Part shown: piece after piece, positions 51,401-57,400 of the stretch | How positions within the stretch are numbered: the stretch's first letter is position 1 | Layout of the letters: each line of letters opens with the position of its first letter | NCBI GenBank assembly: GCA_020137815.1 | Contig: CM035357.1 | Location: forward strand, 4,278,001-4,342,000 | From: Hormiphora californensis | Lineage: Eukaryota > Animalia > Ctenophora | Direction of reading: 5' to 3' | Length of the DNA stretch: 64,000 nucleotides | Position numbers and translations under genes: made by a program | Notes under the pieces: model-generated | What the model was told of the DNA's origin: nothing | Seen by the model: only the letters and a program-made list of their open reading frames with translations | The model's database searches: none

Positions 51401-54400
51401 AGACCAAATATCTTTCTCAGCCCAGTCTGTATATGGTCGTATTTTTCCGTGATTCCGACGCCATACAGACCAGTTGTATGTTGTACATATAATGCATATT
51501 AAGGTACAGTGTACACACTAAATAATTTTGGTTTGTTTGGGAAACAAAGAAAACAGTTTATTGTTTGATTTTCTATGCATGCCAGTAGCAATGAAATAAC
51601 TTTGTAAGGGCAATCGATTAACTCACAAAAATACTGATAAATTCCGTATGAAACTAATTTCGCTTAATACTAATTTTAAAAACACAGCACTCATTACTCA
51701 ATCCTGATTTATATTAACCTCGCTTCTTTTGCGTACTAGAGAAATGACTCATTTTCCTGACAAATCCTAGTCGCTGTTCTCGGTCAACAAAACGGTAATC
51801 TCTAACTTGCCTACTTATCATCTCCTGTCTCTTGACCTCACTCTTCTTCTTTTTGGACACATTAGATCCCCCAGACATAAACTGGTTGATCTTAAAATCA
51901 CTTTTAATCTGCACATTACGAATTGTTTCAATAAACTTCCAAATCACGGGCTTTGCACACCCCATAGCTAATCTAAGTCCATTGTTTCCTCCTTCTGAAA
52001 CATTGTTCGTTCTGGGCTGTCCGGCCAGGGTTCTGTCATAACAGTTCCACTGTTTACACGTGTACCTACCGTCAACCCAGGTTGACTCAACGTACTCACA
52101 AAAGTCTTCCGATTCAGGAAAAGTTGCGAAAAGTAGGTGCTTGTAGTCGTTCCATGCATCAGCTACCTCGTCAGTCGGAAGAAACGCCATACCGAATAGA
52201 TGATACAGCATCTCCTGAAGATCCTGTTTGGTGAAAAATCCTGGCACATTCTTCATATGTTTCAGGAGGGCCTGATCCAGATGGAAGTTACATCCCTGCA
52301 TCCAGCTGTCAGGGAAGAGATCCTCTACTGCTCTGATGATCGCTGTCTCGTAGTCGGAGAGGAACCCTACTGGTCCCCATTCTGGAGCTGCTTCTTTTAG
52401 GCAGTTGAGGGCCGCCTTGTATGAATCCTTCGTCTTGTTCTCCAACAGGCAAAAGGCAACCGGGATGTGGTCCTTGGTGTCTGCCAAGTAAATCCTGATG
52501 ATGAAGACTTGATAACAGCCGGCAGGAGCGGTGGCGAAGGTTCCATCTAGGAACGTTATCGTGGAGTTCTCCAGCTGAGTCAGGTTCTTGTCAGTTGCGA
52601 AAACTACCACCCGTTTTCCAGAGCGGGTATATGAGTCAGAAAGCAGGAATCTGTTGCACGACAACCAATATCAGGCCTCTCTTGACTACTCAATGTATCT
52701 CCCCCAGTCACCCAGGTTATCTCCCCCAGGAAATACTGTATTATCCCACCAGTTACTCACTGTATCTCCCCCAGACACACTGTATCTCCCCCCGTACTCA
52801 CTGTACTCCCCAGTACCCAGGTATCTCCCCAGTACTCACTGTATTCCCCCAGTACTCAAGGTATCTCCCACAGTACTCACTGATCTCCCCCAGACCCGTG
52901 TATCCTCCCCCAGTACTCACTGTATCCCCCAGTACTCACTGTATCTCCCCCAGTACTCACTGTATCTCCCCCAGTACCCAGTGTATCTCCCCCAGTACTC
53001 ACTGTATCTCCCCCAGTACCCAGTGTATTCCCCAGTATCACTGTAATATAAAATCCCCAGTACTCACTGATCTCCCCCAGTACTCACTGTATCTCCCCCA
53101 GTACCCAGTGTATCTCCCCCAGTACCCACTGTATCTCACAAGCACCACACAAGCAAACTGTAAACTGGACACCTAAAAATGTGTTCCCTTCTGCCAACTA
53201 CTGCAACCCCTCTACATCTTTTATCGGCCAACCTAAGATGATTTGCCCTTGACGGAGTGAACACTTGTTGAAGCTTGGTAACGAAATTACCCCTAACTTG
53301 CGTGCACGCTAAATCGTGCTCTACTACGAGGGCTAATTTTGTTATACCAATGTTTGATGTTGATGCTAGCTATTTTCCAACCGGCTGAAGCTTCTCAATA
53401 TTTCTCAACCAATATAAACCTACTCTATACTTGTTGAATAAGTCTATTATAGCGGGGTCACCATTAACCGTTTTGTGGTGAACAAAAGGGCAGCTGCTAT
53501 AAGGAGGACAGTATAACTGCTCAGAGAACCTTCTCTCTAGCTGATCAGAGAGCTCCTTCATAAACTCATTAACACCTCTCCACCAACTGGGATCATAGCT
53601 ACTCATTTATATATGTTAATAGAATCCATTCAAAGCACATATATATGTCACTTATGTCACTTATGTCACGTGACTGTTTTCTAACAGGTGTGCTCTGTCA
53701 ACCTTACATTGTTTTCTACCCCCCCTCGTAACATGACCAACCTTCCTTTGTTTTCTATTTTCTAACCCGCCCTGTCAGATGACCACATAAGCTCCTTATA
53801 AAACCAAGGATGCTATTAGTTACTCTAACTATTACTACGTTACCAACTAAAGAGTCCCTCTACTACAGTCATCATGATAAAGTTATTGCTGGTGATCTTC
53901 CTGGTTACCCTGGTTACCCTAGCAACAACTGATACAATTCATTGGGTCCAGTTGATGAACAAGGGCGGTTATGGCTATGCAAACTATGTTGGAGTTCCTC
54001 GGATGAGAGTTAATTCCGACTCTTACACAAGAGTCTGCATGAAGGAGGGATTCGGCGATAATGAGGCGAATTTCCTGTGCCGCAAAGCAGGGTTCCATAA
54101 AGGAGGAACGTCCACTACCTATGGAGATCTTGAGGAAAAGTACCAATTTAGGGGAAGCAGCAGCTGGTGGAATTCTATCCAGGAAATATAACGATCACCA
54201 ATTGCCCACCAAATGCATCTAGCCTCTCTGATTGTAACCACCAATATGGAGGGAACTGCACACTCGACGACACCGTCGCGCTGAAGTGTAACCCAGATTG
54301 GGAGCTGGAGAAAGTTGAGTTGAAGAGGAACGTAAGCAGTACTGTTGTTAGTGGGAGCTACGGAACAGTGGTCATCACTATGAGGAACACCACTGATGGA

Positions 54401-57400
54401 TCCTTAAAAAGCGGCATGTCTTACTTCGGTGTTACACATTATAGTTTCACAAGAGACTTCCTCTGTAGAAAGGCAGGCTATCCTCTCGGGGCGGAGGATT
54501 ATGGAGAAAACGGAAACAACCGGAATGAAAGCCTAGCAGAACCATTCAATGGACGACAATATGCGTTAGCCTATACAAACTGCTCAGTAGGTACAAAAGA
54601 TCTCTCTGAGTGTTCCGTGGGTTATAAACCCTTTACCCATACATATTACTGGGAGCTAGGGGAGGTACTGTTCTGCAGGACTAGCTCACCAACACCAGCA
54701 CCCACACCAGCGCACACACCAGCACCCACACCAGCACCCACACCAGCACCAGGGCCTTGGAACTCGACAATAACCATAGAAACGGGACACGGGTTAAATT
54801 CAACCAAAGGCACTGTCGTCCTCACAAACCAGCACACCCAGAAGAAAGGCCTGATATGTGGTAAAGACTTGGATCGACATTCTGCTGATATGGTTTGCAG
54901 GGCAGCGGGATTCCGGTTTGCAGAAGCGATTGCGATCAACTACGAGATTTCTCAAGACGACCGATTGGATTGCTCCTACGTCAGGGAGAATGGAATCCAG
55001 CCGATACTGACAAATGTAAGCTGCCCCCGTAACGCTTCCTCCCTTGACTCCTGCTCTACAAGCCCAGTTGATGGTGGAGTGTGTGATGCAGATAGTGGAC
55101 TACACTTGACCTGCACAGACGACATCTCTCCTTCCTCAGTGTGGGATCTAGTAGATATAGCTCTGGCCAGGAACCCAGGAGGAGGCCACATGCCGGAGAA
55201 TGTTGTTTGGAATGGAAACTTCGGGACAGCCATCGCAACCTTGCACAGCCGTGAGAATGGAACCTTCCTGACAGGTCTGGTACCTGTCAGTGCCATACAA
55301 GGGAGCCCCTACTGCAACACCCAGGCCATGTGCCGGTCCATCTTGGATACCTGGACCTCTACCTACTCCGATTACAGAAACATTGGGGAACTAGAGGAGA
55401 GTCACGGGAAAGGTCTCTCCTGTGGGTACATCATTGGTAACGATATCAACTTCCTGCCTGTAAGCCGTATAGACTGTGGTTGTGGAGCCGAGGTCACTAT
55501 TGAGAACTGCAGGGATATCGTGATTGCTCCAGACTTCCTCCAAAGTGACCCCAAGGAAGCACTCTGGATAAACTGCTATACAGGAAACAGAGATCAAGCA
55601 AATATTTAAATTTTTTAAATTATTTTGAAAGCATTTGATCCAAGTTTATTTGATTTGTTGGAAACAAAGTTACCACTGGTCAGTGACGGAAATAAAACAG
55701 ATAAACCATGGTACTCACTGTATCTCCCCCAGTACTCACTGTATCTCCCCAGTACTCACTGTATCTCCCCCAGTACTCACTGTATCTCCCCAGTACTCCA
55801 CGTATCTCCCCCAGTACTCACTGTATCTCCCCAGTACTCACTGTATCTCCCCCAGTACTCACTGTATCTCCCCAGTACTCACTGTATCTCCCCAGTACTC
55901 ACTGTATCTCCCCCAGTACTCACTGTATCTCCCCCAGTACCCACTGTATCTCCCCCAGTACTCACTGTATCTCCCCCAGTACTCACTGTATCTCCCCCAG
56001 TACTCAGTGTATCTCCCCAGTACTCAGTGTATCTCCCCCAGTACTCGCTGTATCTCCCCAGTACTCACTGTATCTCCCCCAGTACTCACTGTATCTCCCA
56101 GTACTCACTGTACTCCCCCAGTACTCACTGTATCTCCCCCAGTACTCAGTGTATCTCCCCCAGTACCCACTGTATCTTTAGACTGACGTATTATGCAACA
56201 CCACACACACACACACACACGCACGCCAGTTTTTGACAGTAGTTGACAAATACACGCACACACAAACTGCAAAGTGACACATCTAAAAATGTGTTCCGTT
56301 CCAACTACTGCTGCAAACCCCCCTGTATCTTTTTTAGCAATCTAAGATGAATTGCCCTTGATGGAGTGAATATTTGTTGAAGCTTGGTAACTACGAGGGG
56401 TAATTTCGTTACCAATGTTGATGCTAGCTATGTTCCAACCATCTGAAGCTTCTCAATATTTCTCAACCAATCTAAACCTAGTCTATACTTGTTGAATAAG
56501 TTTATTATAGCGGGGTCTTTGTGTGAACAAAAGGGCAGCTGCTATATGGAGGGCAGTAAAACTGCTCAGAGAACCCTCTCTCTAGCTGATCATGAGAGAG
56601 CTCTTTCACAAACTCATTAACACCTCCACCAACTGGGATCATAGCTACTTGTTGTTTTACTGCTGGGTAACAAGTTCTTTGTAACTCGTCAACAACCTCT
56701 TAACTCAATTTAACTTTGTAGTAACAATTATCTTTGATGCCGCACATATTTAATGTGATTTATATATGAAGTATGAACGTTTGTAGACTGGCGCGTTATG
56801 AAGTTGGCTGTTCCCAGCGCGAGCTGGGGACAGCCAACTGGAGTTTAATCGCGCCAGGGGCGATAAACTGGTTAAATCCCGACTCCGATCCCGAGGCGCC
56901 AGCCGAGGGTGAGGGGAGGTGATTTAAACCTATAACGCGATAGGCTAACAAACGTTCATATTTTATGAAACCCGATAGTAATTACACACAAATAAGAGAC
57001 ACAACACAAGGTGAAACACACTAGAACTGCTGGTAAATAGTCAACAGATACCCTGAAAATGTGTGTAGACTTGTGTCTACTGTTCCTAACATGTTTGAGA
57101 AAGAGAGAGAAAGATTAGGGGCAATACACACTGTCAGAGGTAATGAACAGTAAAAGAGACAATGAGAGAGAGAAATGAATGGAATGTGATTCTTTTCACT
57201 CCTTATGAGAGAGATAACATTGAAACGTGTTGCGACATGTTTCCCCTTTCTTTTGTTGACAGAACTGTGTGTTTACACACATTTTCAATACTTAGAATAT
57301 TACACGCATGTTATTCAAATGAAGAGAAACGCGTGAAAAAGGACACTGGCCTGATAATTCGCGAGCAGGGTGTTAAATCCCCCAGCTAGCAGTTATCATG

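Follow-up and report, generated by a model that had tools for sequence, protein, structure and literature searches.

According to the available text of PMC7043408, SALSA (DMBT1) binds its ligands through cations held by D1019, D1020, D1058, D1059, N1081 and E1086, and MARCO, CD6 and CD163 use the same surface, a site described there as conserved and mostly cation-dependent. In the window analysed here, a stretch of 64,000 nucleotides from the ctenophore Hormiphora californensis (contig CM035357.1, positions 4,278,001 to 4,342,000 of the forward strand; positions below are counted from the first letter of the window), a gene encodes a protein with four SRCR-type domains. Its second domain has the same fold as these receptors, and the patches in which its copies differ align with their ligand site, which is here the least conserved part of the domain and has one disulfide fewer. 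This member of the SRCR family is unusual in that, in its lineage, the conserved ligand site has turned into variable loops.

In its way of working, the nearest known system is bovine WC1, whose 13 paralogs carry the variable regions VR1 and VR2 in a distal SRCR domain. These paralogs are conserved from one animal to the next and bind pathogens differently, as with Leptospira (PMC3511184 and PMC5949365, in their accessible parts). Both systems have paralogs that differ in SRCR variable regions. However, WC1 proteins are co-receptors anchored in the membrane, with a cytoplasmic tail and 6 or 11 domains, whereas the window protein is predicted to be secreted, has four domains encoded by a single exon, lacks the cation site in domain 2 and is probably not orthologous. 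Tandem SRCR expansions have also been described in sponge and sea urchin (PMC10855680, available part), and in Mnemiopsis 12 SRCR genes, not necessarily of the same family as the window gene, changed expression after re-exposure to Vibrio, eight of them upwards (PMC11797021, available part). These families share tandem duplication, SRCR-only architectures and a proposed immune role with the one described here. However, the accessible parts of the two reports cover gene number, architecture and expression rather than variation focused on the loops of the ligand site, and the sponge and sea urchin genes are multi-exon.

Variable patches at the predicted ligand site

The full-length copy of the gene runs without introns from an ATG at 53874 to a stop at 55609, and its predicted protein has a hydrophobic N-terminus, four Cys-containing SRCR-type domains, a Pro/Thr/Ala linker and 12 N-glycosylation sequons. 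The features of this copy, together with the second copy with which it was compared, are as follows.

53797..53803, + strand: TATA-like box 5' of the ATG (putative promoter), also kept in the downstream promoter remnant
53874..55609, + strand: full-length gene, single exon, ~578 amino acids, colinear with the homologues P0002 and P0005
53874..53930, + strand: predicted signal peptide, common to P0005
53931..54292, + strand: domain 1, SRCR, 6 Cys, with its own length-variable patches among relatives
54174..54175, + strand: one-base frameshift in the window sequence, judged from contigs of X5, X1 and X14
54293..54676, + strand: domain 2, divergent SRCR fold, 4 Cys, missing the Cys pair of the canonical cation site as well as most of its acidic residues
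54425..54448, + strand: patch 1, a loop replacing the canonical C-D-D motif, in at least four versions, one a codon shorter
54569..54589, + strand: patch 2, replacing the L-D-x-x-x-C strand (SALSA D1058/D1059 region), by family alignment
54614..54649, + strand: patches 3 and 4, on a loop that replaces N-C-x-H-x-E (SALSA N1081/E1086 region), by family alignment
54677..54751, + strand: Pro/Thr/Ala linker, 12-bp repeat, of varying length among relatives
54752..55117, + strand: domain 3, SRCR with a Pfam match; ratio of nonsynonymous to silent change (dN/dS) 0.07 between the copies
55118..55609, + strand: domain 4, divergent, SRCR-like, homologous to domain 2; dN/dS 0.42
49923..51298, - strand: inverted 5'-truncated copy, from the end of domain 1 to the stop, 93% identical, frame open, without promoter or signal peptide

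The original prediction had set the two copies side by side as near-identical paralogs, whereas they are a full gene, frame-shifted in the window, and a 5'-truncated copy. Contigs from four of 19 sequencing runs were compared with the window, among them X1, which may be the window's own source, X5, a separate sample and study, and X14, an RNA library. At 54174 the contigs are one base longer and the frame stays open (depth 1511.7 of 1511.7 in X5 and 27.6 of 119.5 in X1, and a loose end in X14), therefore intact versions of the + copy exist; the frameshift itself is likely an assembly error or a private allele. The contigs of X14, a single oligo-dT metatranscriptome, include some with 96-99% identity to the gene, which does not by itself prove transcription.

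In a codon alignment of 457 codons (the + copy from 54236 against the - copy ending at 51298), residues differ at 19 of 128 positions in domain 2 (54293-54676), at one of 122 in domain 3 (54752-55117) and at 12 of 163 in domain 4 (55118-55606), while all 20 Cys stand at matching places. The count in domain 2 differs from that in domain 3 (Fisher p=2e-5) and not significantly from that in domain 4 (p=0.055). Fifteen of the 19 changes in domain 2 fall inside four patches (54425-54445, 54578-54589, 54614-54619 and 54638-54649), and the clustering is strong over 100,000 shuffles, with nine adjacent differing pairs (p=0.00012) and one run of seven residues differing throughout (7/7, p=0.00003). In patch 1 there are 11 differences in 21 bases where about two would be expected. 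At 54584, every X1 and X5 contig covering the site has the base of the other copy and the window base is found in neither sample, so that this S/P difference probably reflects an error or a private allele, which leaves 18 robust differences. With that proviso the original prediction was exact in its count for domain 2, in the clustering, in the patches it quoted (RSASQTN vs FGVTHYS, YCPA vs NCSV, KM vs SV and YTGN vs HTYY), in the single change of domain 3 and in the conservation of the Cys; domain 4 does differ at many residues, but at 12 rather than about ten.

The register between these patches and the known ligand site is given by P0008, a relative in which the canonical motifs are preserved and which can be aligned directly with SALSA SRCR1 and MARCO. 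Aligned through P0008, the patches fall on the conserved SRCR ligand face, which agrees with the binding surface originally proposed for them, and known structures suggest that the loops would meet in space to form that face. The family alignment puts patches 3 and 4 on a loop ending in C-x-x-x-E. In the group to which the window copies belong, the disulfide between the first and last loops of the site has lost both its Cys, and most of the acidic ligands are gone too. The equivalents of SALSA D1019, D1020, D1058 and E1086 are replaced in both window copies, and an acidic residue is kept at the place of E1086 in two of three paralogs from Pleurobrachia bachei. At an equal overall identity of 60%, the site segments are 67/62/54% identical in relatives with a canonical site (n=4) against 17/47/15% in the P. 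bachei paralogs of the variable group (n=3), and in the long loop the relation is inverted (39% against 75%, range 71-75%), in a comparison of small groups with segments drawn on the window sequence. In a domain-2 tree of 11 rows the five rows with a variable site join (99/96); however, this tree is unrooted and long branches meet in it, and it is the canonical state of other SRCR domains, rather than this tree, that gives the direction of change at the site.

The same positions vary beyond the two copies. Three P. bachei paralogs from another subfamily alone served to class the columns of the alignment, independently of the window copies, and 14 of the 48 columns variable in P. bachei differ between the window copies against five of 80 invariant columns (p=0.0007). 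Contigs of X1 and X5 were compared over 54372-54500 (129 bases) with a listing cut-off of 6% for letter differences, and both window versions of patch 1, matched by the listed letters, were found in each sample; patch 1 is therefore not an assembly artefact. Additional versions, both read by hand, are KSARYYTS in X1 and YGNRQSI in X5, the latter one codon shorter, besides others seen in part, which gives at least four versions across the two samples, from contigs that may be chimeric. Across X1 and X5, 20 of 26 listed letter differences lie within 23 of the 129 bases (per record, 10 of 15, and six of 12 plus all three gaps), a share inflated because rare differences in the flanks fall below the 6% cut-off. 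Dips of contig depth were seen at the patches and are not counted as evidence. Aromatic residues make up 22% of variable against 11% of conserved positions in domain 2, a comparison to which no test was applied.

Singling out domain 2, the original prediction missed the variable patches of domain 1, which is 68% identical to P. bachei peptide-24 (P0005) with changes of loop length, whereas the first 27 residues of domain 2 are 96% identical. Between a pair of P. bachei proteins, domain 3 is again the best conserved (86% vs 69/70/80% for the other domains). Several paralogs with localised variation, as in a diversified family, are thus present.

Fold, architecture and relatives of the protein

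The predicted secretion of the protein rests on a Kyte-Doolittle hydropathy peak of 2.33 at residue 1. This N-terminal stretch is the sole hydrophobic segment of the full-length protein, and the stop codon comes directly after domain 4; neither the transmembrane helix nor the cytoplasmic tail characteristic of the WC1/CD163 family was found. Against PF00530 (SRCR) the whole protein scores 48.8 bits (gathering cut-off 26.1), with domain 3 as the best stretch, and domain 2 alone gives no Pfam SRCR match. By its structural model, however, domain 2 has an SRCR fold. The model has a predicted local distance difference test score (pLDDT) of 69, two of five models being good, and in a VIA comparison its 20 best rows (Z 8.2-4.4) are all SRCR-bearing proteins, including protease and factor I ranges that we take to be SRCR domains, while the next row falls to Z 2.6. 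With Foldseek no row reached E 0.001, and the template modelling (TM) score normalised by target was 0.70 to SCARA1. Domain 4 likewise has no Pfam SRCR match on its own and is homologous to the domain-2 alignment (hhalign probability 97.6, E 3.7e-12). With four Cys, domain 2 falls outside the canonical group A SRCR domains, which have six Cys and three disulfides; the Cys pair it lacks is present in P0008, P0009, P0055 and P0093.

Two other assignments were set aside. An antibody match of the domain-2 profile against PDB sequences is a chance hit (E 0.49). The toxin system that had been proposed as one candidate is not borne out, for no toxin or pore-forming domain was found, SRCR is the sole Pfam family above cut-off, and each of the four domains either is SRCR or has homology to an SRCR domain.

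All close relatives whose source is named come from one tentacled ctenophore, P. bachei. Among 7,993 scored candidates there were three matches, the P. bachei gene models sb/3463037, sb/3463571 and sb/3468084 (56-62% identity), to which the domain-2 profile added P. bachei 'putative secretory peptide-24' (AFK75434.1) and one further protein. Peptide-24 belongs to the same family and shares with the window gene the signal peptide as well as the start of domain 2. A profile search over 1.84 billion representatives gave 186 matches at E up to 0.001, seven of them at 1e-30, and three of the ten matches looked up are from P. bachei. Among the matches are relatives of ~400 amino acids that cover domains 2-4. 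An Atlas look-up with P0005 returned SRCR clusters only, a search limited to 30-54 amino acids found no shorter homologues, and of 112 pattern matches in a scan of JGI metagenomes none was confirmed. The P. bachei relatives are deposited merely as putative secretory peptides or gene models, and no description of variable loops in them was found. A literature search likewise found no account of variable loops in this ctenophore family; the P. bachei genome paper and its supplements were outside that search and may bear on both expression and novelty.

A shorter sister family (P0008, P0009, P0010, P0055, P0057 and P0093) matches domains 2-4 and measures ~400 amino acids where complete. In four of its members the canonical cation site is intact and the long loop is the most variable part; two have partly lost the site. 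It includes P. bachei 'putative secretory peptide-9' (AFK75419.1), which is more distant from the window gene.

Selection, conversion and competing explanations

Positive selection on the patch columns is likely, though not proven. In the columns chosen from P. bachei, the proportion of nonsynonymous differences (pN) is 0.176 against a gene-wide proportion of silent differences (pS) of 0.075, a ratio of 2.5 (p=0.006, or p=0.010 without the doubtful 54584). Gene conversion would fit a site at 54461 that is incompatible with the grouping at 54425-54428, 224 identical bases at 54824-55047 in domain 3, and one X5 contig that is like the + copy and then like the - copy in domain 4, which may be an assembly chimera. 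However, silent differences are spread evenly over domains 2-4 (p=0.47) and the longest stretch free of them is not unusually long (p=0.15), therefore conversion alone does not explain the contrast between the domains.

The reading tentatively favoured here, with somewhat less than an even chance of being right, is that of a multicopy, probably ctenophore, family of predicted secreted four-domain SRCR proteins with variable recognition loops, diversified probably by selection and directed most probably against microbes or parasites. Each copy would secrete a protein in which variable loops of domains 1 and 2 take the place of a fixed cation bridge. Loss of the disulfide would free the two loops that it tied, and the cation bridge of ordinary SRCR domains would give way to a variable contact surface rich in Tyr and Trp, while domain 3 may serve as a constant scaffold or effector part. 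Duplication of a minisatellite-flanked unit would supply new copies, many of them decaying, and selection would favour new specificities, each copy gripping a different foreign surface. A bolder version, in which ctenophores, as earliest-branching animals, built an antibody-like secreted SRCR repertoire by turning the cation site into three loops, rich in aromatic residues and variable in length, on a constant scaffold, with selection diversifying them, segmental conversion reshuffling them and truncated promoterless copies like the one beside this gene serving as donors, is a long shot.

Several points weigh against selected recognition loops. Whole-domain dN/dS between the copies is 0.91 in domain 2 (0.07 in domain 3 and 0.42 in domain 4), and thus below 1. 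Against the few local silent sites, nonsynonymous change in the chosen columns is not significant (p=0.25, one-sided 0.13). By hand count, 17-18 of 20 changes in the patch-1 region alter the amino acid where about 16 would be expected without selection, a near-neutral mix at a high density of change. One compared copy is truncated, and part of its change may be decay. In addition, several changes are multi-base runs, which inflates dN; the figures come from counts on the two window copies, the paralogs entering as protein sequences; the closeness of the patches in space is read from alignment, the four-domain model of P0002 having a pLDDT of 39; and the documented close family comprises four P. 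bachei proteins. The original prediction of diversifying selection accordingly stands in part: change in the chosen columns exceeds the gene-wide silent rate, while dN/dS does not exceed 1 and the local comparison is not significant. The changes are clustered rather than scattered. Likewise, a variable secreted recognition system is in keeping with the predicted secretion, the SRCR fold and the recurrence of the patches in P. bachei paralogs.

The dN/dS of domain 2, the local test, the near-neutral mix in patch 1 and the truncation of one copy would all fit relaxed constraint, under which the loops, freed by the loss of the disulfide and cation site, drift while domain 3 or 4 does the work. 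However, drift cannot exceed the silent rate, which the chosen columns do 2.5-fold, nor does it account for the density of differences in patch 1 or for the long loop staying conserved in the variable group, and this explanation is considered unlikely. Conversion acting alone, with domain 3 and the flanks homogenised and the patches keeping old divergence, would fit the identical bases in domain 3, the incompatible site and the possibly chimeric contig. It is nevertheless very improbable, since in the P. bachei pair, too, domain 3 is the best conserved, old neutral divergence would have raised silent change in the patches, where pS is low (0.058), and the even silent differences leave no need for homogenisation of domain 3 as the sole cause. 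The patchwise conversion first suggested comes down to the one incompatible site and the one contig that may be chimeric.

The same mechanism could also serve a partner of the animal's own species, in gamete or self-recognition driven by sexual or allorecognition selection. A sea-urchin sperm receptor contains SRCR domains, gamete proteins evolve fast, and predicted secretion, the sequons and diversification of a surface would all be in line with such a role. However, the patch-1 versions of the window are identical in X1 and X5, which places the diversity between paralogs rather than individuals, as with WC1, and makes an own-species partner rather unlikely. About as doubtful is a secretion of tentacle or mucus for prey capture, with variable domains binding varied prey surfaces. 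The protein is predicted to be secreted, multivalent and glycosylated, and the animal in which its named close relatives occur is tentacled, but a literature search gave no paper tying colloblasts to SRCR proteins, there is no low-complexity glue signature beyond the short linker, and a glue would not need to diversify at one site.

The surrounding locus and what the family may mean

Comparison of the window with itself gives one 1.5-kb inverted pair, 54234-55743 against 51298-49766, with 93% identity. The - copy lacks most of domain 1, and its start adjoins a fragment of a MULE transposase. The locus resembles a unit undergoing duplication, some of whose copies have decayed. Around it lie the following elements.

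51714..52670, - strand: MULE transposase fragment between the two copies (PF10551, E 4.9e-11)
52687..53137, unstranded: 21-bp minisatellite 5' of the full gene
55711..56177, unstranded: the same 21-bp minisatellite 3' of the full gene, at the start of a repeat of the upstream unit
56180..58321, + strand: remnant of a third unit without its coding part (upstream region 56180-56649; promoter to just short of the ATG, 58097-58321)

In X1 and X5 a contig departs from the gene at 54414 into the same unrelated sequence, likely a further truncated copy elsewhere in the genome. Farther off in the window, an uninterrupted frame of 691 amino acids at 31852-33927 (+ strand) carries a reverse transcriptase domain (PF00078, E 9.7e-30) and is likely a non-long terminal repeat (non-LTR) retroelement. 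A 33-bp tandem repeat at 36952-37942 (30 copies, 99% matches, long open frames on both strands) is likely a young minisatellite. Near-perfect long palindromes at 10020-11030, 2244-2886, 27062-27540 and 19036-19375, 84-94% self-complementary, are possibly foldback elements or resemble miniature inverted-repeat transposable elements (MITEs), and G-rich tandem repeats occupy 63169-64000 (64 bp, 13 copies) and 6314-6890 (23 bp, 25 copies).

For the SRCR family, a site reported as conserved in the available text of PMC7043408 appears here as the most variable part of its domain, and the intact site in relatives of the same family lets the states before and after the change be compared in nature. 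As far as the accessible part of PMC11797021 goes, most knowledge of ctenophore immunity comes from domain counts, to which named genes, mapped loops and expressible variants for tests of target specificity can now be added.

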